A DNA stretch of 64,000 nucleotides from a virus (Duplodnaviria > Heunggongvirae > Uroviricota > Caudoviricetes), in IMG/VR virus record IMGVR_UViG_3300027851_000011. One strand, written 5' to 3'. Position numbers and translations under genes: made by a program. The notes beneath the pieces were generated by a model. It had not been told where the DNA came from and made no database searches. It saw nothing but the letters and a program-made list of their open reading frames with translations. This document shows positions 6,240-43,520 of the stretch, piece after piece. How positions within the stretch are numbered: the first letter of the stretch is position 1; each line of letters starts with the position of its first letter.

Positions 6240-6254
6240 GGTGTCAGACGCACG

Positions 6255-6611
6255 CTATTCCTTTACGTCGGGCGGCTGCTCTGGATACCGTTTCTTCAGC
6301 TCATCATCCGGGGCCAGTGTGCCTTCGAGTCGGTACTCGGCCCAAGCTACTTCGGCTTCCTTGCGGGTCATCGTTCCCCGTGCCACGTTGCGCTCGATGC
6401 AGATCTTGGCGTGCTCGCGTACACCAAGGTACAGCTTCAGCCCGAACGTCGCGGCCTTCACGTAGTTTGCCTCCCAGGTAGCCGCTGTCTTGTCATCCGG
6501 CAGCATGACCGGAATCTCAGGCATCGGAACCATCGGCAGGCGCTCGTAGACCATGCGGTTCTCGCAGCATCCGCTGAGCAGGATGGCGAGCAGGAGCACG
6601 AGGTATTTCAT
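6255..6611 (-). CDS. Outer-membrane lipoprotein, o-spanin (Rz1-like) candidate
   Basis: MKYLVLLLAILLSGCC has a lipobox LSGC with a proline-rich mature part. Its start overlaps the upstream i-spanin-like gene by ATGA. Confidence 0.55.
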   Translation of the reverse strand: MKYLVLLLAILLSGCCENRMVYERLPMVPMPEIPVMLPDDKTAATWEANYVKAATFGLKLYLGVREHAKICIERNVARGTMTRKEAEVAWAEYRLEGTLAPDDELKKRYPEQPPDVKE

Positions 6612-6982
6612 CGGTGTCCTTTCGTGGGAGCCCAGTGCGGGGCAGCTTGCTGCTGTTGCTGCTGGACGCCTTGCTGTTGCTGTTGCTGGATCTGCTGGTG
6701 CTGCTTCGACCGGATCTCGGTCAGCTGCTCGATCACCTCTGGATCCTTGGCCTTGGCCAGTTCGGTCTCGACGCCTTCAATGACGTCAGGACGCGTGAGC
6801 GTCTCGCCGTCCGCAGTCGAGAGATCCTGGAGCGACATGCCATCGGAGCCGATGGCGATGTTGTCGCTGATCAGGATCTTCAGGCTGATCGCCGTCAGCA
6901 CGAACAGGAGCCCGACCGAGATGATGATCCAGGCAGCCGCCGGCATCTTGGCGAGGTTCAGGTTGATGCCGGGGATCTTCAC
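6608..6982 (-). CDS. i-spanin (Rz-like) candidate: N-terminal TMD, periplasmic coiled coil, C-terminal poly-Q
   Basis: The hydrophobic segment AAAWIIISVGLLFVLTAISL is followed by a charged helical region and QQQQQQGVQQQQQQ. Confidence 0.5.
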   Translation of the reverse strand: MKIPGINLNLAKMPAAAWIIISVGLLFVLTAISLKILISDNIAIGSDGMSLQDLSTADGETLTRPDVIEGVETELAKAKDPEVIEQLTEIRSKQHQQIQQQQQQGVQQQQQQAAPHWAPTKGHR

Positions 6983-7215
6983 TTGGTCACCGCGTTCCAG
7001 GCAGCGGGCGACGACACGTCGTGCCCGAGGCGCATGGCCTCGTGAATGCGACGCTGAGCTTCAGCGTCCTCAGCGATCGAGCGCATCTTCGCTTCGAGCG
7101 CCTTCGTCTCTGCCTTCACGGCATTGCGCTCCTTGACGCCATCGACGGTCTTGCCGACGAGCAGCTCCAGGAGCGACTTCACGATGGGTCCGAAGAGGGT
7201 CAGCAGGAACGTCAT
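6979..7215 (-). CDS. Small membrane protein, possible holin/antiholin (single N-terminal TMD)
   Basis: 78 aa. MTFLLTLFGPIVKSLLELLV is hydrophobic and is followed by a charged amphipathic tail. Position in the lysis module supports the call. Confidence 0.3.
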   Translation of the reverse strand: MTFLLTLFGPIVKSLLELLVGKTVDGVKERNAVKAETKALEAKMRSIAEDAEAQRRIHEAMRLGHDVSSPAAWNAVTK

Positions 7216-7218
7216 GGC

Positions 7219-8046
7219 TTACCCCGCCTTCGCGCTGAGCTTCGACTGGATCTCGGCCTCGGCCTGCTTCTCCAGGTACTCCGTGAACTTCTTCGCACCA
7301 ACGTTCAGGCCGTACTTCACGGCCATCTCAGCGCCGCCCTCGACCAGGGCCTTGGCAGTCGGGTACTTCTGGAACGGGCTCATCTCGTCGACAGCGCTGC
7401 GGATCCAGCTCATGATCTGGTCCTCGCCGACCTCTTTGATGAGGTCGATGTCCTGGCCCTTGAAGTACACCACCACGTCGTTCAGCAGCATGGTTCCGAG
7501 CCCCTTCAGGCGCTCCTTCACGGTCGTGATGTCCTTCACCTGACCACGAGCGATGGCCTCACACAGCTCAGGCAGGTACTTCTGGTTGTAGTTCTCGACG
7601 CACCGCCAGACATATGTCTTCGCACGCGCAACAAGCCGCTGCTTGGCGTCGATGCCGGCAACCTCGGCCTCGGCCTCGGCCTTGGTGATCTGCGCACTGG
7701 TGTAGTCGTTGATCTTCTTGCGCAGCCAGACAGCCGCGAGGCCCGCCAGCATGACGATGATCTCGGTCCACCACGTCTTGGGCGCCTCTTGTGTCGTGCC
7801 AGCTACAGGCGAGGCCGGTTGTGTGGGGTGGACAGCCGGTTCACTAGAGACAACGGCCGGAGCCGCTGCCACCGGAGCCGGCGCCGCAGGCGCTGCGACC
7901 ACAGGAGCCGGCGCTGCCGGCACGGTGAAGGGATTGGCCTCGGCCGCGAACGCGGCACACGCCAGGAACAGCAGGAAGACGTACCGCATGGGATCTCCAG
8001 GGTTGGGTTGTCCCCTGAATGGTCCCCTAACACTCACGAAAAGCAA
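7219..8046 (-). CDS. Exported/membrane protein of lysis module (signal peptide, Pro/Ala-rich linker, TMD, 170-aa C-terminal domain)
   Basis: Signal-peptide-like MRYVFLLFLACAAFAAEA, then PAPVVAAPAAPAP and a TMD WWTEIIVMLAGLAAVWL. The overlapping + strand ORFs are low-complexity shadows. Confidence 0.4.
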   Translation of the reverse strand: MLFVSVRGPFRGQPNPGDPMRYVFLLFLACAAFAAEANPFTVPAAPAPVVAAPAAPAPVAAAPAVVSSEPAVHPTQPASPVAGTTQEAPKTWWTEIIVMLAGLAAVWLRKKINDYTSAQITKAEAEAEVAGIDAKQRLVARAKTYVWRCVENYNQKYLPELCEAIARGQVKDITTVKERLKGLGTMLLNDVVVYFKGQDIDLIKEVGEDQIMSWIRSAVDEMSPFQKYPTAKALVEGGAEMAVKYGLNVGAKKFTEYLEKQAEAEIQSKLSAKAG

Positions 8047-17321: not shown

Positions 17322-20144
17322 ATGAATGCCGTGAACACGGTGCCGGAACCGGCACCAAGTGGCGAACCCGTCATCAAGCACCCGGATGATTACACCGGCC
17401 CGATGTTCAGCCGGGAAGTGATCGAAGAGTTTCAGAAGTTCTCGAAGGAGCCCTGGCTCGCTGTTGTTCGTCGTGCCTCGACATGGCACTACCACACGCA
17501 GCAGAACCCCACGCTCCCGAAGGTCGAAGAGCTGACGCCGTTCGATGTTCCGGCTGTGCGCGCCATTCGCGGAATCAGCCCAGGCGAGACCTGGGAACAG
17601 TTCGCGAAGAAGTGCAACCTGAACCTCTCGCGTCGTCTCGATGAGACCAACCCGTGGCTGCCGGGATTCGTGAATAAGAGCGATGATCGCCCGACGTCAT
17701 GGAACCGTAGCAACGCTGGATCTCCACTCGCTGACAATGCAGGATGCCAAGAGGCATTCGTCAAGATGCTCAAAGAGGACTGCCCATTCGGCGCCTCAAC
17801 AGGTCTCGGAGCTGCTGGCAACACGCTGGCACACTCCGCGATCGGCACGATGGTGACTGAAGACATCGTGACACTCGGAGAGATCGTCGACCAGCTCGCC
17901 AAGCTCCATCGCTTCTGGTTCAAGCCTCTCGGCGCCGAGTATCTCGACGCCGAGTTTCGTTATGGGAAGCATCTGTGCCTGCTCACGGGCCTCGGCTTCG
18001 GTGTCGTTCGTGCTGTCGCAAGCCGGCTGAAGGACTACTACGAGGGCCTCGACTTCTGGGAGACCTGCCACGAAGACCAGCTGCGTGAGTCCGCTATGGT
18101 CGCACGCCGAATCCATGGCTACCCCATGGGTCTGCTGCGCGTCGACGGTGCAAAGCTGACTGCGTTCCTCGAACGCCGTTCGTGTGCTCCCGGTGACTGG
18201 TTCACGCTCGTCATCCTCACGCACATCCTGAAGTACGCGCGGTTCAGCCATGTCAGTGACCGTGGCTGCCCCGTCGTGCAGGTGATCCGCGACGGGCGTC
18301 GCAACCTGTTCTACCTCGACGCAACACAGCTGCGGGCATCGTTCGGTATGTCGCAGAACACCAAGCTGCGCATCGACGTTCTCAAGGCCCTCGGCCTGCC
18401 GACGTCAGTCAATGCTGACTTCCCGCCGCCGTCGACGAGCGTCCTGGGCATCTTCGACATGCTGCGCCCGACTGATCTGTGCGAGCTTCGTTCGCTCGAT
18501 GATCTGATTCACCTCGCTGTTCCACGGGCTGTCGAACTGGTCCCCACCATGAAGTACATCGGGGAATACATGTTCGTCGATTACGGCATCGGCGCGACCA
18601 ACGTCGCACACATCGACTACGACAGCGGAAAGGTCGTGATCGAAGAGATCCTCACGGGTCTCGACATCGGTGCGATCCAGTGGCCTGAAGGCGCGCTCAC
18701 GAAGTCCGAACTCATGACCTGGAAGTCCTGTCTCCCGAAAGAGGTGAAGCCGATGCTCCCGTCCGAAACCGTCTTCAAGTACATCCGCAACTGCAATGAC
18801 CTGGGCATGGTCCGGGCACGCAACGCGATCTTCGACACCTGGATCCTGCTGAATCTGGCTCGCCCCAAGCTGGCTGGTACGAAGCTCGGCAACTCCATGG
18901 TGAACGAGTACCCTATCGGCATGATCCTCCCCATGGGTCATACGAAGGAAGAGACGACCAATCAGGGCAAGACCAATCTGGGCCGCATCATGCTGCACAC
19001 GATCTGCCCGAACGTTCCTGTCATCATCCCGTCGCGCTCGTCGAGCGCACCTGCTCAGCGCGCTGCGGCTTCGCCGCTCGACGACTACGGCACCGCGATC
19101 TACGACGAGTTCCAGCTGCCGTCGAGCCATGAGCACTTCCTGGCTCAGGCCGGACTCCAGTCGCTGGCAACGGGTGGCACGGTCACGCCGGGCCGCGCCA
19201 TGGAAAACAGCAAGGGCGTCAAGCTCAAGCACTCCATGGTCATCTGCGCGAAGATCAGCGCGTTCCCTGTCGACATCCGCAACCGTTCGTTCTGCTTCTT
19301 CATGGACACTATCGACGACAAGTCGCGGTGCACCGACGAAGAGCTGACGATCATCGGCACTGGCGTCGCTGCCAGCACCGTGCGCATGAACGCGCTCGCG
19401 TGGATGGACCGCATCGGCTTCGTCGAGAAGCTGAACACCATCGTCCCGAAGGCCAGCAAGCACAACCGCTTCTCTGCGTTCATCGCAGTTGCCGTGGCTC
19501 TGTGTCAGGCTGCTGGTGGCACTGAGAAGGAGGTCTACGACTACTTCGAGGCATGTGCCAACAAGTGTGAGGACCAGCATCTCAAGGCCACCGAAAGCGG
19601 ACTGGCTGATGAGATCGGTGCGAACGGCGAGTTCTCGGCCCGCCACTTCTTCAGCCAGTGCACCGTCAGCACGCTGGAGATCATCGCTCGCAACGATGGC
19701 AAGATGTGGGGCGCTGCCGAAATGCTGCGCAAGATGGTCGAAGACCAGGATCAGCGCCGCTATTCCGACGTTCTCCGCGAGTACCACATCAAGGAGAGCA
19801 CGGCGGTGCAGAAGTTCTGCAACGCTGTGAAGGACGGCAAGATGGTGATCGACGGTTGGAAGATCGAGTCGTACCACGACCCGCGCTCCCCGACCGAGAA
19901 GCGCCGCTACTACCGCATGGTGCGCGGCAACTTCAACTGTGATCCCACGGCTCCGTCTGCTGAGGAACTGAACGCGCACTTCAAGGCCGGCGAAGCCCCC
20001 GTGGCCGCACAGGCTCCGACTGGAACGCAGGCCGACGTCATCAAGGACAACCTGAAGCGCGACACGGCCTCAGACATCAAGGACGTGGCGCAGAACCCCG
20101 ACAAGTACGGCAGCGACAAGCCGCAGCCGAACCGCAACAAGTAA
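17322..20144 (+). CDS. Large (940 aa) protein of unknown function in the replication module
   Basis: Long + ORF with RBS GGAAAAACTCAATG. No Walker/helicase or polymerase motifs recognised. The antisense 524-aa ORF is a shadow. Confidence 0.5.
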   Translation: MNAVNTVPEPAPSGEPVIKHPDDYTGPMFSREVIEEFQKFSKEPWLAVVRRASTWHYHTQQNPTLPKVEELTPFDVPAVRAIRGISPGETWEQFAKKCNLNLSRRLDETNPWLPGFVNKSDDRPTSWNRSNAGSPLADNAGCQEAFVKMLKEDCPFGASTGLGAAGNTLAHSAIGTMVTEDIVTLGEIVDQLAKLHRFWFKPLGAEYLDAEFRYGKHLCLLTGLGFGVVRAVASRLKDYYEGLDFWETCHEDQLRESAMVARRIHGYPMGLLRVDGAKLTAFLERRSCAPGDWFTLVILTHILKYARFSHVSDRGCPVVQVIRDGRRNLFYLDATQLRASFGMSQNTKLRIDVLKALGLPTSVNADFPPPSTSVLGIFDMLRPTDLCELRSLDDLIHLAVPRAVELVPTMKYIGEYMFVDYGIGATNVAHIDYDSGKVVIEEILTGLDIGAIQWPEGALTKSELMTWKSCLPKEVKPMLPSETVFKYIRNCNDLGMVRARNAIFDTWILLNLARPKLAGTKLGNSMVNEYPIGMILPMGHTKEETTNQGKTNLGRIMLHTICPNVPVIIPSRSSSAPAQRAAASPLDDYGTAIYDEFQLPSSHEHFLAQAGLQSLATGGTVTPGRAMENSKGVKLKHSMVICAKISAFPVDIRNRSFCFFMDTIDDKSRCTDEELTIIGTGVAASTVRMNALAWMDRIGFVEKLNTIVPKASKHNRFSAFIAVAVALCQAAGGTEKEVYDYFEACANKCEDQHLKATESGLADEIGANGEFSARHFFSQCTVSTLEIIARNDGKMWGAAEMLRKMVEDQDQRRYSDVLREYHIKESTAVQKFCNAVKDGKMVIDGWKIESYHDPRSPTEKRRYYRMVRGNFNCDPTAPSAEELNAHFKAGEAPVAAQAPTGTQADVIKDNLKRDTASDIKDVAQNPDKYGSDKPQPNRNK

Positions 20145-37651: not shown

Positions 37652-37815
37652 AGAAGCTCAAGCTGCTGAAGAAGAACGTCATCAAGCTCCCGCCGAAGGC
37701 ATTCAAGCAAGTCCTCAAGATCATCAACGATCCGAAGCCACCGAACGCGGCACTGAAGCGCGCAGCGCGGAAGTACCGTGACGAGGTGAAGGCCGGAAAG
37801 CTGAAAAGCACATGA
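37650..37815 (+). CDS. Small basic protein (about 54 aa)
   Basis: GTG start overlaps the upstream stop. Translates VKKLKLLKKNVIKLPPKAFKQVLKIIND... Confidence 0.25.
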
Positions 37816-38387
37816 ACATCATCCTCCGGGCCGCCAAGTTCGCTGAGATCGCCCACCATGGGCAGAAGCGGAAGGGCATGGACCTTCCGTACATCATCCA
37901 CCCTGGCCGCGTCGCTGCACGCATCTCGCGCCTCGACAACGCCACCGAAGAGATGGTCGCTGCCGCGTGGTGTCACGACATTCTCGAAGACACCACCGTC
38001 CCGGCCAACGACATCGGCAACAGCCTCAACTTCGGAACCATGCAGCTGGTTCTCGAACTGACGAACCCGTCGCACAAGCCCGAGAACAAGGCTCTGAATC
38101 GTGCTGCCCGCAAGCAGCTCGATCGAGAGCACCTGTCAAAGGTCAGCCTCGAAGCCAAGTGCATCAAGCTCGCGGACAGGGCTGATAACCTGCGCGAGAT
38201 GGGGCACTTCGCTGATTCATTCAAGCGTCTGTACGCGTCCGAGTCCCGGCTGCTGTACAACGCTCTCAGTGAGGACAACGGCATCACGTCGTCTGCCGTT
38301 TCGAGCCTCGCAACCATGCCGCTCTTTGACGAACTCGATGCTGCCATCCGGTGGCTCGAACAGACCATCGACCCCGAGCACTACTGA
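37812..38387 (+). CDS. HD-domain phosphohydrolase of the RelA/SpoT (Mesh1/SAH-like) type, putative (p)ppGpp hydrolase
   Basis: HHGQKRKGMDLPYIIHPGRVA...AAWCHDILEDT matches the SpoT hydrolase HxGQxR...PYxxHP...HDxxED pattern. Confidence 0.6.
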   Translation: MNIILRAAKFAEIAHHGQKRKGMDLPYIIHPGRVAARISRLDNATEEMVAAAWCHDILEDTTVPANDIGNSLNFGTMQLVLELTNPSHKPENKALNRAARKQLDREHLSKVSLEAKCIKLADRADNLREMGHFADSFKRLYASESRLLYNALSEDNGITSSAVSSLATMPLFDELDAAIRWLEQTIDPEHY

Positions 38388-38397
38388 AAGGCTCACC

Positions 38398-38700
38398 GTG
38401 AACATCTTCAAGTACATCATCCCCCACAAGAACCGCTCTGTCGTGCAGATGCCGGCCGGCGCCAAGATCACCCACGTGGCCCCGCAGGTCAACGCGGAGA
38501 CCGGCGAGACCCAGATCTGTGCCTGGGCGCTCGTGCCCGAGAACGTCGAGGGCGACTGCGCCGAGGTGAAGTTCCAGATCGTGGGCACCGGCGGCAAGGC
38601 GCCCGCTGGCTACACCTACGCTGGCATCCTGATCCTTCACAACACCACGATCATCCAGCACGTCTTCTTCGACAGCACCGCGCCCATCGTCAAGATCTGA
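38398..38700 (+). CDS. Hypothetical protein
   Basis: GTG start within ORF 38101..38700 after the upstream stop. Confidence 0.35.
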   Translation: MNIFKYIIPHKNRSVVQMPAGAKITHVAPQVNAETGETQICAWALVPENVEGDCAEVKFQIVGTGGKAPAGYTYAGILILHNTTIIQHVFFDSTAPIVKI

Positions 38701-38917: not shown

Positions 38918-39777
38918 CAACTTCGACCACGACACGCAAGCTCTACTTCACGATCCATGGCGAGTGGCTGACGAACTTCTGCCGCTCCCGGTGGGCCGAT
39001 GAAGACGAGCCGTTCCACGCTGTGAAGGTGCTCACCTCGGCTTTCCCCGAGTTCAGCATGCAGCGCATCTTCCAGATCCTGACGGGTTCTCTGAAGCTCG
39101 CAGGCAAGTCGAGTGGCCCCGACTCCGACATGCACCTCGAAGATGACAACGTCACAGTGAGCGAGCATGGCAACTTGCTGTCGTTCTCTGACGTGATGTC
39201 CAAGACGCTGACGCGCATGATCGACAAAGCCGCCGAGAAGCGGCTGGCCGAGCCGCTGCGTCTGCTCAGCATTGCCATCGAAGAAGAGGACGAGAGACGG
39301 CGTGACCAGCGCGTGCGCATGGCCATCCAGTTCGCTGACCAGTCGGTGGCAGAACCCAAGCTCGATAGCTTCAGAATCGGCGGAGCCCTCGTTCCGCGTG
39401 AGATCCTGAAGGATCCGAACGCCATGTTCTTCATGCAGTACATGGGCGCTACGGCTGAAACCGTCAAACCAGAGCCAGGGCCACTGAAGGGCAACTGGTG
39501 CGGTTGGATCAAAAAGGACGGGGTCTTCTTCCCGTGCAAGTACTTCCAGCACGACGCACTCGCTGATGCGCTGGGGTACAAGAACGGTGACGAGATGCTC
39601 AAACAAGGATGGGTGAAAGTCCAGGAAGCAAACCAGGGCCTCATCAAGAAGCCTGCTGACCTCTATTGGCACACCAAGCCAACCCAGTCGCAGATCGACA
39701 CGATCTGGGATTGGTGCAAAGACAACAACCGTGAGTTCCCAAAGGACCAACTCGATGAGTACCAAGATCATCCCTGA
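38914..39777 (+). CDS. Hypothetical protein
   Basis: 287 aa ORF. Confidence 0.45.
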   Translation: MTTSTTTRKLYFTIHGEWLTNFCRSRWADEDEPFHAVKVLTSAFPEFSMQRIFQILTGSLKLAGKSSGPDSDMHLEDDNVTVSEHGNLLSFSDVMSKTLTRMIDKAAEKRLAEPLRLLSIAIEEEDERRRDQRVRMAIQFADQSVAEPKLDSFRIGGALVPREILKDPNAMFFMQYMGATAETVKPEPGPLKGNWCGWIKKDGVFFPCKYFQHDALADALGYKNGDEMLKQGWVKVQEANQGLIKKPADLYWHTKPTQSQIDTIWDWCKDNNREFPKDQLDEYQDHP

Positions 39778-40162
39778 AACCATCATCAAGCGCGGCTACG
39801 TCACCACTGACGAGTACGAGGCGATGAGTGCCAGCAAGAAGCTGGAGAAGGTGAACCTCGGCAAGCGAAAGGCCGGCTCCGACGAGCAAGAGGATGTCGA
39901 AGGCATCTGGGTCTACCCGCTCGAATCGACCGACACGCCTGGAACGAAGTTCCACTTCGTCCTCTTCAACGACCCGGTCTTCACGCGGGGCCCGCGTCCA
40001 CTCGCTGGCATGGTCGGCGTCGGCCACGCCACGGGCAGGGACTCGCGTGGCCGGGCCTACACCGACGAGTGCATCGAACTCTTCAAGAAGGCTGGTCAGG
40101 CGGCCATCGACTACCACAACTCGGTCGTCGCGGCCGAGAATGCCAAGAAAGAGAAGAACTGA
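39755..40162 (+). CDS. Hypothetical protein
   Basis: In-frame Met within ORF 39731..40162. Confidence 0.4.
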   Translation: MSTKIIPETIIKRGYVTTDEYEAMSASKKLEKVNLGKRKAGSDEQEDVEGIWVYPLESTDTPGTKFHFVLFNDPVFTRGPRPLAGMVGVGHATGRDSRGRAYTDECIELFKKAGQAAIDYHNSVVAAENAKKEKN

Positions 40163-41422
40163 ATGGTCGATGTCATGCCGGACAAGGTCGTCATCGTGTG
40201 CGTGAGCACTGAGGCGACCTCAACGTCTAAGAACAACAGCAACAAGTTCCATAAGTGGGAGAAGCAGGCCGACGGCCAGTTCCTCCACAGCTATGGACGC
40301 GTCGGTGACCCCGGCGTCACGCATCTCGTCAGCGAGAGCAAGGCACGCGCGAAGCTGAAGAGCGCGCTGAAGGACGGCTACAAGGAGGTGGCGATCGCTG
40401 GTGCAGAGCCAGCACAGCCGCAGACCAAGGGCGCTGCTACGGCGAAGACCGCCGTCGACGAGATCGCTAAAGGCGATCCGACCATCGCCAAGCTGGTTAC
40501 CTTCCTCAGCGAGCAGAACGTCCACAACATCTCGTCGGCTACTACGCTGAAGTACGACAAGGTGTCGGGCCTGTTCAGCACGCCGCTCGGCATCGTCAGC
40601 CAGGACTCGATCGACGAAGCACGCGAGCGTCTCGCGGAGATTCAGCATGTGCTGACAGCGCCGGGTATGGTAGTGGAAGCTGATGTCAACAAGCTGGCTG
40701 CTGCCTACATGATGCTCATCCCGACGGACATAGGCCGTGACCGGCCGACGTTCAATCGGATGTTTCCGAACCTCGACGCTGTGCAGAAGCAGAACGACAT
40801 CCTCGAATCCCTCGAAGGTTCGCTGGAGATGGCTGCCAAGCCAGTGAAGAGCAAGAAGGCACCGAAGGCACCTCGCGTGTGGGACATTGACATCAAGAAG
40901 ATGCTCGACACGACCGAGATCGAGCGCATCCGCACCAAGTTCAAGAAGACCTACGAGTACGGACGCCCCGACATGGATGTTCGCAACGTCTACGACGTGA
41001 CGATCAACCATATGAAGAAGGCGTTCGACAAGGAGGGCAAGAAGATCGGCAACGTCGAAGAGATGTGGCACGGCACCAGCGTCGGCAACGTCCTCTCCAT
41101 CTTCGCCAAGGGCCTCATCATCCCTGCCCACTGCTCGAACGGTCGCAACTTTGGCAACGGCGTCTATGCCAGCCGCCAGAGCCACAAGAGCATGAGCTAC
41201 GCCGGGCAGTTCCGCTCGTCGGTTCGTCGCAGCTGCTACATGTTCCTGGTCGAAGTCGCGATGGGCAAGGGCTTCATCCCGAAGTCCCGCGTCCAGAGCC
41301 CGCCTGCGGGCTACGATTCTGTCGACGTCGTCCCAGGCGCCGCCGGATTCAGCGCGCATGAAGCGATCGTCTACAAGACGAGCCAGACCAACGTGGTTCG
41401 TCTGATCGAGTTCGCTGCGTGA
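40163..41422 (+). CDS. PARP-family ADP-ribosyltransferase with N-terminal WGR domain
   Basis: WGR region KWEKQADGQFLHSYGRVGDPG. Catalytic H-Y-E elements MWHGTSVGNVLSIFAKGL, GNGVYASRQSHKSMSYA and YMFLVEVAMG. Confidence 0.7.
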   Translation: MVDVMPDKVVIVCVSTEATSTSKNNSNKFHKWEKQADGQFLHSYGRVGDPGVTHLVSESKARAKLKSALKDGYKEVAIAGAEPAQPQTKGAATAKTAVDEIAKGDPTIAKLVTFLSEQNVHNISSATTLKYDKVSGLFSTPLGIVSQDSIDEARERLAEIQHVLTAPGMVVEADVNKLAAAYMMLIPTDIGRDRPTFNRMFPNLDAVQKQNDILESLEGSLEMAAKPVKSKKAPKAPRVWDIDIKKMLDTTEIERIRTKFKKTYEYGRPDMDVRNVYDVTINHMKKAFDKEGKKIGNVEEMWHGTSVGNVLSIFAKGLIIPAHCSNGRNFGNGVYASRQSHKSMSYAGQFRSSVRRSCYMFLVEVAMGKGFIPKSRVQSPPAGYDSVDVVPGAAGFSAHEAIVYKTSQTNVVRLIEFAA

Positions 41423-41718
41423 GGAACAAGTTCCCAGGCCGCTGCCTCCGCTGCGATGCAGAGGTGGCAGCGGGCCAGGGGTTCTTCGAGAAGGTCGACG
41501 CGACCAACGAACACGCGGCGCTCCATGTAAAAATGAAGCGCCGCAAGTGGGCGATACGCTGCATCAACTGCGTTGGCAAAGGCCACTCGCATCACCCTGG
41601 AAAGGCACCAGATGCTCCTAGTCATCTATCAACACTCTGGCAGCAAGTACGTCAGCAAAGAGAATGCGACCCAGCAGGACCTCGCGAACTGGATTTCACG
41701 GAAGACGAAAGACGATGA
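41419..41718 (+). CDS. Small zinc-ribbon protein (C-terminal extent uncertain)
   Basis: CLRCDAE...CINCVGKG. The ORF overruns the likely start of the next gene. Confidence 0.35.
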   Translation: MRNKFPGRCLRCDAEVAAGQGFFEKVDATNEHAALHVKMKRRKWAIRCINCVGKGHSHHPGKAPDAPSHLSTLWQQVRQQRECDPAGPRELDFTEDERR

Positions 41719-41842
41719 TGACTGGGACATCGACTGGAACGGCCCGAACGAGTGCGAGATCACCCACCCCAACCTAGCGTCCGGCTTCAAGGCAAAACTT
41801 CGCCCTGACGACTGGCCGATCACGAACGGAGAACCAGCATGA
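41612..41842 (+). CDS. Hypothetical small protein
   Basis: MLLVIYQHSGSKYVSKENATQQDLANW... within ORF 41573..41842. Confidence 0.35.
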   Translation: MLLVIYQHSGSKYVSKENATQQDLANWISRKTKDDDDWDIDWNGPNECEITHPNLASGFKAKLRPDDWPITNGEPA

Positions 41843-43218
41843 GTACTTCATCACCAGCGTCAGACGCACCGCTACTGAACTCGGTGCTACAGAAACTGCT
41901 CGATTCGTCGGGCGACGCGAACCTCGATCTCGTGGCATCGACATTCGGGCTTCCCCGGATGTCCGAGATGCCGCGACCCGGACTCGTCAGGGCCTGGGAC
42001 TTCGACGAGTGGAAGGCATGGGCAGAACCGTACGGCCTCGTGGAACTGCCGAGAACAACGCACAGCTACGTGCTGTGCCACCCGAAGCTGAAGATGCTTC
42101 GCGTCGCCATGTCCTCGTCGACCGGCGATGTGAAGTCACGACTCAACCTCGGAAGTGACGTCAGGCAGGCATTCCGATTCGAATACTCACGTATCGCAAA
42201 CTACTGCTGCCACCTCGTCGACAGGTACATCCAGAGGCACGAGGATCGCACTGCGTTCAACAACGAGCAGGAGATCATGCTCGCACTCCGAGACGAGGTG
42301 CTGGAGACCCGTCACACCGACAAGTATTCGGAGCGGCCAGATGGCAAGGACGCTCGTGATCGTATCGAAGCCGTCGAAGACCTGATCGGAGCGCCGAAGG
42401 CCAAAGCCGCGTCGCTGAAGCGGCTGCTGATGAAGGCATCGGACGTCACAGGCCAGCCAGCACGAAGTGTCGTGAAACGGCTCGTGGCTCTGTCGATGTC
42501 TGACATCGACGCAGGCGATCCAGCGTCACGCGAGAAAGTCGCTGAGCGTGTCTACAAGGTCATCATCGACGAACTCGGTGTGCGGCACTCGTCGTGCGAG
42601 CTGTTCATGGATGCCCTGAAGGACATCATCGAGACCCACGAGGCCATCGAAGAAGAACAGAAGCGAGCCAAACTCGAAGCTCGTGAAGCTGCGCGTGCCG
42701 AGCGTCAGAAGGTCAGCAAGCAAGATGCGCAGGCTCTCGTCACTGACGATCCTGCTGCCTTCGCCAAGGCCATGGCTGACATCCGTGGATCGTTCCTGAA
42801 GCATACCGGGCCGCTGCTGACTACGATGAACGAGGCAATGACGCAAGTGCGAGCACTCGCCGAGCACTCGGCGAGCTTCCCGTCGCCGTCGTACCCAACA
42901 GCCAAGCTGGCTGAACTCGGGACTGCCAACGCCATGCTGTTCGAGAGGGCGTCGTCCCTCGAAGACCAGCTCGAAGACATGAAGACCGCCAAGGATGCGG
43001 TCGATGTCGAACTGAAGCGGCTGAAGGATGAGCACGCCATTGCAGAGCAAATGCTTGCCGAAGCCGGCACGCACTCTGACTGGCGAGGCGCATACGCCGA
43101 ACTTGTCACCACGCTGGACGCTGCTCTCGCGAGCAGTGACTTCCTCCAGCTGGCTGTCGGTGTGCAAACAGCACGGCAGGCCCTTGTCGCTGCCAAAGCA
43201 AAGATCGCGCAGTCATGA
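41839..43218 (+). CDS. Coiled-coil hypothetical protein (459 aa)
   Basis: Long ORF whose C-terminal half is helical and charged. Confidence 0.45.
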   Translation: MSTSSPASDAPLLNSVLQKLLDSSGDANLDLVASTFGLPRMSEMPRPGLVRAWDFDEWKAWAEPYGLVELPRTTHSYVLCHPKLKMLRVAMSSSTGDVKSRLNLGSDVRQAFRFEYSRIANYCCHLVDRYIQRHEDRTAFNNEQEIMLALRDEVLETRHTDKYSERPDGKDARDRIEAVEDLIGAPKAKAASLKRLLMKASDVTGQPARSVVKRLVALSMSDIDAGDPASREKVAERVYKVIIDELGVRHSSCELFMDALKDIIETHEAIEEEQKRAKLEAREAARAERQKVSKQDAQALVTDDPAAFAKAMADIRGSFLKHTGPLLTTMNEAMTQVRALAEHSASFPSPSYPTAKLAELGTANAMLFERASSLEDQLEDMKTAKDAVDVELKRLKDEHAIAEQMLAEAGTHSDWRGAYAELVTTLDAALASSDFLQLAVGVQTARQALVAAKAKIAQS

Positions 43219-43520
43219 GCTTCTACCGTGAGAAGCTGGTCCTCACGAAGAAACCGCACCGCTGCTTCGGCTGCTGGCGGAAGTTCCCGGAGAAGACCAA
43301 GCTGTGGTATGTGACGGGGATGGGGGAGGAAGGCTTCTGCGCCAACTACGAATGCCCCACATGTCACGAGATCTTCAAGACCATGGACCAAGACGAATGT
43401 GCGGAAACCTCACCCGGAGATCTTCTCGATCTCGCACTCAAGAAAGAAAACGAGCATGTCACTGCGCTGCCTGTTGGGCTTCCACAAGTTCCGAGTGCTG
43501 ACGAAGGAACACGGGTTTGA
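43215..43520 (+). CDS. Small zinc-ribbon protein
   Basis: CFGCWRK...CPTCHEI. Confidence 0.4.
   Translation: MSFYREKLVLTKKPHRCFGCWRKFPEKTKLWYVTGMGEEGFCANYECPTCHEIFKTMDQDECAETSPGDLLDLALKKENEHVTALPVGLPQVPSADEGTRV

Follow-up and report, generated by a model that had tools for sequence, protein, structure and literature searches.

A large uncultured phage encodes a compact PARP2/3-like protein with WGR, helical regulatory and ADP-ribosyltransferase domains

The window analyzed here, a 64,000-nucleotide stretch of the viral record IMGVR_UViG_3300027851_000011 (Caudoviricetes), covers about kilobases 131-195 of a metagenomic contig 200,766 bp long. At positions 40163-41422 on the plus strand it carries a gene whose 419-residue product is a complete minimal PARP2/3-like module, composed of a WGR domain, a helical regulatory domain (HD, PARP_reg) and a C-terminal ADP-ribosyltransferase (ART) domain. 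The protein is very probably an active PARP of the H-Y-E (diphtheria-toxin-like) class, with a break-binding WGR domain, an autoinhibitory HD and an ART domain, that would carry out DNA-break-activated auto- and trans-ADP-ribosylation during infection. The gene is a divergent addition to an already recognized phage PARP family.

The open reading frame (ORF) is real, and its ATG follows directly on the stop of the gene before it (39755-40162). Pfam searches placed two domains above their cutoffs: the catalytic domain (PF00644, E=3.6e-18, 66.2 bits versus a cutoff of 26.7, aa 251-387) and PARP_reg (PF02877, E=9.5e-10, 39.1 bits versus 26.8, aa 106-234). A first-pass annotation, made from the DNA letters and ORF translations, had recognized the C-terminal PARP catalytic core correctly and had not mentioned the helical domain. 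The top PDB sequence match of the protein is PARP3 (3c49, E=1.3e-15, phmmer), with PARP1, PARP4, PARP2 and tankyrases among the further matches. A family alignment of 114 sequences (A4), which also served as AlphaFold2 input, was used as a profile. It aligned end to end with PARP2 (E=5.6e-49), including the WGR block of that protein ('NNNKYY...WGRVG'), and it also aligned with the PARP1 WGR-catalytic (WGR-CAT) region. Among the WGR residues, G45, R46, N27 and K28 each show conservation of at least 97% across the 114 homologues. The first position of the WGR motif is mostly Y in bacterial PARPs (PMC5966428).

The structural model agrees with this domain assignment. The AlphaFold2 prediction is confident, with a predicted local distance difference test score (pLDDT) of 87.4 and a predicted template-modelling score (pTM) of 0.81, and places helices at aa 92-225. 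Its best Foldseek matches are human PARP1 WGR-CAT chains in complex with a DNA double-strand break (TMq 0.71 and E about 5e-25 for 4opx_C/4dqy_C) and PARP2 WGR-CAT at a bridged break (6x0m). The PARP1/2 WGR-CAT chains superpose on the model over its whole length.

The catalytic site is intact. The first-pass annotation had described a complete H-Y-E triad and had rightly named H303 and Y335, but its choice of glutamate was wrong. It had taken E364, in 'LVEVAMG', as the catalytic residue; this position is a variable column of the family (Table 1) and aligns with the 'LGEVALG' beta-strand of PARP1/PARP3. The true triad glutamate is E400, which aligns with 'YNEYIVY' of PARP1 and PARP2, 'SEYLIY' of PARP3 and 'DEFVVY' of PARP4; its PARP1 counterpart is E988. 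The nicotinamide pocket, lined by K342, S343 and Y346, is preserved as well: K342 and Y346 are found in 114/114 homologues and G304 in 113/114, while S343 is serine in 91 and alanine in 23. From the PDB alignment and established knowledge, G304, K342, S343 and Y346 are taken to be the equivalents of PARP1 G863, K903, S904 and Y907.

Comparison with related loci shows that the gene is under purifying selection, with ratios of nonsynonymous to synonymous substitution rates (dN/dS) of 0.14 against the homologue in locus L127 (83% identical) and 0.27 against that in L004 (74% identical). A promoter and terminator scan around the gene gave nothing above shuffled expectation.

Since the full WGR-HD-ART module is present, DNA-break-dependent activation is the default expectation. 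The WGR domain would bind a DNA nick or end, and this binding would destabilize the HD and open the NAD+ site. The opened enzyme would then ADP-ribosylate itself and nearby proteins, probably yielding an oligo- or poly-ADP-ribose product by analogy with HaPARP and CdPARP, bacterial enzymes of similar size. The gene lies in the replication and nucleotide-metabolism arm of this roughly 200-kb uncultured phage. It would most likely be expressed together with that arm, its product acting on DNA-associated host or phage proteins during host DNA breakdown and phage DNA replication. Ligases encoded near PARP in other phage loci (described below) are consistent with a link to nucleic-acid breaks.

Several points weigh against this interpretation. 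The WGR domain scores below the Pfam threshold (PF05406, 16.3 versus 22 bits, E=0.011, aa 22-63), and the WGR-like region proposed in the first-pass annotation is instead backed by the Foldseek fold match and the PARP2 WGR profile alignment. Ligases are missing from the window, and their presence elsewhere could simply reflect placement within a DNA/RNA-metabolism module. A break-activated PARP would consume NAD+, a cost to the phage, and the absence of an eraser in about 70 kb would be unusual for a reversible signalling system. A literature search turned up no enzyme assay or other experiment on any phage PARP; the assays found concern only the bacterial HaPARP and CdPARP. The type of product is a further point. 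The segment from the 'VEVAMG' strand to the catalytic glutamate spans 36-38 residues in most family members, whereas PARP1 has ~65 residues there, ~27 more than the phage family. PARP3 and PARP4 keep H-Y-E and yet are mono-transferases. Together with the short segment before the glutamate, this makes polymer synthesis uncertain, and sequence alone does not separate a poly- from a mono-transferase. The triad glutamate is necessary, not sufficient, for chain elongation.

The eraser search was carried out at several levels. No Macro, PARG/DUF2263, NUDIX, ARH or NAD+-salvage domain was detected by Pfam in 102 window genes (E<=1e-3). Elsewhere, 10 of 89 viral loci encode a TARG1/Poa1p-like macrodomain no more than 6 kb away from PARP, with PDB profile E-values as low as 3e-37 (L003:470-1093, L057:14623-15135 and 8 other loci). 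In Klebsiella phage 05F01, the macrodomain gene near PARP is annotated as a 'putative phosphatase'. Pfam-A missed a representative of this macrodomain at E<=0.01, so Pfam-only eraser screens can overlook it; a hidden Markov model (HMM) of the macrodomain was therefore run on the six-frame translated window, without a match. The 7-kb right flank up to the contig end holds no eraser or NAD+-salvage genes. These negatives cover about 70 kb, the first ~131 kb of the contig lying outside the search. For the window and its right flank, they bear out the earlier statement that no macrodomain or PARG partner is visible nearby.

The missing eraser would fit another reading, in which the protein irreversibly modifies host targets. 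As a host-takeover effector like T4 Alt/ModA/ModB, it would act on host RNA polymerase, translation factors or nucleoid proteins, with breaks inessential. This role was proposed by Iyer et al. for jumbo-phage PARPs (PMC7824862), and the window's PARP gene does lie among non-structural genes. However, the WGR domain and the autoinhibitory HD are both retained, with their key residues conserved throughout the family. This argues for an activity that is regulated and triggered by nucleic acids, and speaks against a constitutive toxin-like ART. The window's gene also has no MuF fusion and no head or packaging genes nearby, which sets it apart from many injected phage ARTs (PMC9503650). The host-takeover role is possible, though distinctly the less probable account.

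Modification of DNA ends is improbable. Here, the enzyme would ADP-ribosylate terminal phosphates at breaks or genome ends, as PARP2 and PARP3 do in vitro. Against nucleases such as RecBCD, this would label or shield phage DNA, or block the ends of host DNA. PARP3 is the closest solved relative by sequence, and PARP2 and PARP3 are reported to ADP-ribosylate DNA break termini (PMC5861426). The conserved WGR residues, the short acceptor region and the ligases adjoining PARP in other phages point the same way. Yet the case is purely inferential: the literature searched reports no DNA modification by any PARP of bacteria or phages, and the window itself supplies no evidence of it. That the gene is an inactive or decaying passenger of bacterial origin with no infection role is extremely improbable, because, although bacterial homologues occur in many phyla and homing endonucleases or IS elements often flank PARP loci, as for a mobile gene, all catalytic residues are intact, dN/dS stays at 0.14-0.27 across three phage lineages, and the same DUF7352 neighbor is kept in every locus of the clade. 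A break-activated PARP, working in the manner of PARP2 and PARP3, is the best-supported reading.

The distribution of the family qualifies the earlier claim that PARPs are rare among bacteria and bacterial viruses. The claim holds for cultured phages, where only 7 of 50,697 records contain full-length relatives (29-33% identity, 94-99% query coverage): Xanthomonas phages XacN1 (BBA65562.1) and Xoo-sp13, Klebsiella phages 05F01, FBKp34 and KP13-16, and Stenotrophomonas phages CM1 and RAS14. It fails for IMG/VR, in which a pattern scan found relatives in at least 91 viral loci, and for a collection of 5.8 billion proteins, with at least 199 clusters. Of the best 80 IMG/VR loci, 47 are on contigs that measure 100 kb or more, and for 25 the contig is 200 kb or longer. 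A strict motif scan also matched 38 bacterial species genomes, including Armatimonadota, Blastocatellia, cyanobacteria, mycobacteria and megaplasmids.

The novelty implied by the first-pass annotation is overstated, as phage PARPs are already annotated and published. GenBank labels the XacN1, Xoo-sp13 and FBKp34 proteins as poly(ADP-ribose) polymerase and the 05F01 protein as 'ADP-ribosylation', and the family is covered by PHROG 23333 (E=2e-40). PARPs have been described in Aeromonas phage Aeh1 and Cellulophaga phage phi4:1 (Perina 2014, PMC4245714) and in jumbo phages such as XacN1 (Iyer 2021, PMC7824862), and the PARP/PART family is among the most frequent viral ARTs (Iyer 2022, PMC9503650).

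Mobile elements flank several phage PARPs, namely IS605 OrfB/TnpB and HNH or GIY-YIG homing-endonuclease-like proteins, the latter recognized by eye (L006:2085-3263 and 6243-6788; L007:9284-9865; L010, L017 and L053). This suggests either frequent insertion at the PARP locus or joint movement of the gene with the mobile elements.

Neighboring genes were surveyed in 127 loci (89 viral, 38 bacterial) by clustering the ORFs that lie no further than 6 kb from PARP. The most consistent neighbor in the window's own PARP clade (PARP at least 43% identical) is a small gene of a DUF7352 subfamily, present upstream on the same strand in 11 of 11 loci. It is adjacent to PARP in some loci; elsewhere a GNAT or a 163-aa gene intervenes, and in the window three genes do. 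A profile search of the 5.8 billion proteins returned 17 subfamily members, and PARP follows in every member with usable context (L127, L128, L129, L130 and L132, the last with an AAA ATPase between the two genes). Other loci with both genes include L004, L006, L007, L010 and L011. The subfamily member is predicted with confidence to form a seven-strand all-beta domain, and the model has no structural match in the PDB.

DUF7352 as a whole was rejected as a PARP-specific family. The superfamily comprises 4,228 representative clusters (E<=1e-3), and a distant member, P0150, lies in a locus without PARP. The PARP-linked close subfamily comprises 27 clusters at E<=1e-10. The link is therefore specific to the subfamily and could partly reflect shared ancestry.

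The second recurrent neighbor is a protein of roughly 200 aa, here called X, encoded on the same strand and mostly directly 3' of PARP in 63 of the 127 loci. Of these 63 loci, 13 are among the 38 bacterial ones. X is found among L012-L126 (e.g., L034:13506-14162 and L089:6287-6967). Its N-terminus carries a conserved 'FTAFDVT...H..V...Y.RT...VYHP' module, and its C-terminus, judged by eye, resembles either a second helical module or 'GR.RIP' repeats of AbrB-like type. X has no match in Pfam or the PDB. Homology between X and DUF7352 was considered and rejected (hhalign probability about 0).

Enzymes of nucleic-acid metabolism also recur within 6 kb of PARP in viral loci: Rnl1-type RNA ligase in 11, ATP-dependent DNA ligase in 7 and 2H phosphoesterase in 7. 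An NAD-dependent DNA ligase lies near PARP in L128. HMMs of X and of the ligases, like that of the macrodomain, found no match in the six-frame window, and X is missing from the whole window clade.

It is conceivable, if rather doubtful, that PARP and the upstream DUF7352 gene form a two-gene module in the window clade, in which the DUF7352 protein might set specificity or activate the enzyme in the manner of HPF1, or might be its dedicated substrate. HPF1 itself is not known from prokaryotes. If such a module exists, prokaryotic and phage PARPs would generally be partnered, with target choice set by small accessory proteins (DUF7352, or the putative DNA-binding X), and the phage PARP might act on DNA ends or break-bound proteins as counter-defense. 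Neither the DUF7352-PARP pair nor the widespread X was found in the literature searched; both are leads, not conclusions.

The other genes around PARP are less widely shared. In 7 of the 89 viral loci, the window included, a homologue of the HD_4 phosphohydrolase is encoded no more than 6 kb from PARP, and L127 has one near PARP as well. The L127 form (L127:703-1689) is longer, at 328 aa, and lies directly 5' of DUF7352. The zinc-ribbon gene at 41419, already noted in the first-pass annotation, proved real: L127 keeps the ORF at 99 aa, and its Cys codons differ there by synonymous changes. It is limited to the lineage of the window, L001 and L127, and was missed by the gene callers of the source collections. 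A conserved ORF starting on the PARP stop codon seems not to have been described before. Its 3' end (~107 nt) overlaps 41612-41842 (+) in another frame, and that frame looks better conserved. The two lineage-specific genes between DUF7352 and PARP (Table 1) have only weak PHROG matches, to families of unknown function, and no Pfam match. Searches of Pfam, PHROG and PADLOC returned nothing informative for these two genes, 41419-41718, 41612-41842, 41839-43218 or 43215-43520. PARP and nine neighbors had no match among PADLOC-DB v2 defense components (E<=0.01).

Table 1. Location of the PARP gene, its domains and key residues, and of the neighboring genes discussed (window coordinates).
Feature	Position	Strand	Remarks
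PARP gene	40163-41422	+	419 aa, ATG start, TGA stop; WGR-HD-ART architecture
WGR domain (aa about 8-73)	40184-40381	+	motif Y44-G45-R46, 'NSNKF' before the motif
Helical regulatory (HD/PARP_reg) domain (aa about 92-234)	40436-40864	+	PF02877 and model helices
ART catalytic domain (aa 242-419)	40886-41419	+	PF00644, invariant columns, PARP1-4 alignments
H303 (triad His, 'WHGT')	41069-41071	+	invariant in 114 homologues; codon verified
Y335 (triad Tyr, 'GVYAS')	41165-41167	+	invariant in 114 homologues; codon verified
E400 (triad Glu, 'AHEAIVY')	41360-41362	+	invariant in 114/114 homologues; codon verified
E364 ('LVEVAMG'), not catalytic	41252-41254	+	column D75/E10/N9/Q6/R3 in the family
HD_4 (SpoT/RelA-type HD) phosphohydrolase	37812-38387	+	PF13328, E=1.9e-13; phrog_990
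DUF7352-subfamily gene, 100 aa, all-beta	38398-38700	+	candidate PARP partner, upstream
Lineage-specific gene, 287 aa	38914-39777	+	between DUF7352 and PARP; conserved in L127, also L011
Lineage-specific gene, 135 aa	39755-40162	+	between DUF7352 and PARP; conserved in L127
Zinc-ribbon ORF (CxxC...CxxC), 99 aa	41419-41718	+	GTG start overlaps the PARP stop (GTGA)

The wider genomic setting is that of a large and divergent phage. With a G+C content of about 60%, the window holds roughly 111 genes. They lie on the plus strand except for a minus-strand block of four genes at 6255-7989 (-). Its genes include a family-A DNA polymerase, an SNF2-type helicase, ThyX, a dCTP-deaminase-like protein, DUF932, the HD_4 phosphohydrolase, GNAT, NT5C and many small co-directional ORFs. 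The DNA polymerase reaches only about 25% identity with those of cultured phages, and no near-identical or similar DNA was found in cultured phages. No structural genes were found within the window. The assignment to a phage is based on the window's gene content, its PHROG hits and the presence of PARP-clade relatives on IMG/VR contigs, one of which carries a T4-type portal.

Directly 5' of the polymerase gene lies a 940-aa protein (17322-20144, +) with no PHROG match. The pair is kept in L004, as an 860-aa protein followed by an 822-aa polymerase. The 940-aa protein may be an unrecognized replication protein.

Among characterized enzymes, the closest parallels are the bacterial HaPARP (Herpetosiphon aurantiacus, 47 kDa) and CdPARP (Clostridioides difficile CD160, 52 kDa). 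They share the WGR-PARP_reg-PARP architecture with the phage protein, which has a mass of about 46 kDa. The spacing of the CdPARP triad (H322/Y359/E428) matches that of H303/Y335/E400, and in this bacterial group Tyr often replaces Trp in the WGR motif, as in the phage PARP (PMC5966428). Both bacterial enzymes make poly(ADP-ribose) with NAD+ and activated DNA, and PARP inhibitors inhibit both (PMC5966428, PMC8120803). The genomes encoding HaPARP and CdPARP also encode PARG (DUF2263) and MacroD, whereas the phage has no eraser in the 70 kb examined.

The core of human PARP2 and PARP3 and the WGR-CAT region of PARP1 share with the phage protein an 'NNNK..WGRVG'-type motif, the HD, the H-Y-E triad and the K/S/Y pocket. 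Identity to the human PARPs is about 18-23%, and the phage protein lacks their N-terminal extension, zinc fingers and BRCT domain.

The gene's existence was expected from published surveys and leaves current understanding unchanged. Its value lies in being a clean, compact and intact PARP from a very divergent large phage, and in comparative data that yield testable partner hypotheses: the DUF7352-PARP pair, X, and the occasional TARG1-like macrodomains and ligases. The role of a break-sensing NAD+ consumer in a bacterial virus bears on NAD+-centered conflict between phage and host and on how eukaryotic PARP signalling arose.

Among other phage systems, the annotated phage PARPs have the same full-length architecture as the window's protein and come from large phages but are only 29-33% identical to it and have different neighborhoods. 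The window clade differs from the other phage PARPs in having the upstream DUF7352 gene and in missing X, which is present in half of all other loci. The T4 proteins Alt, ModA and ModB are likewise phage-encoded, NAD+-dependent and used during infection. In contrast to the phage PARP, they are R-S-E (cholera-toxin-like) mono-ARTs, partly packaged in the head and without WGR or HD (PMC8120803), and homology between the two groups exists only at the level of the ART superfamily.

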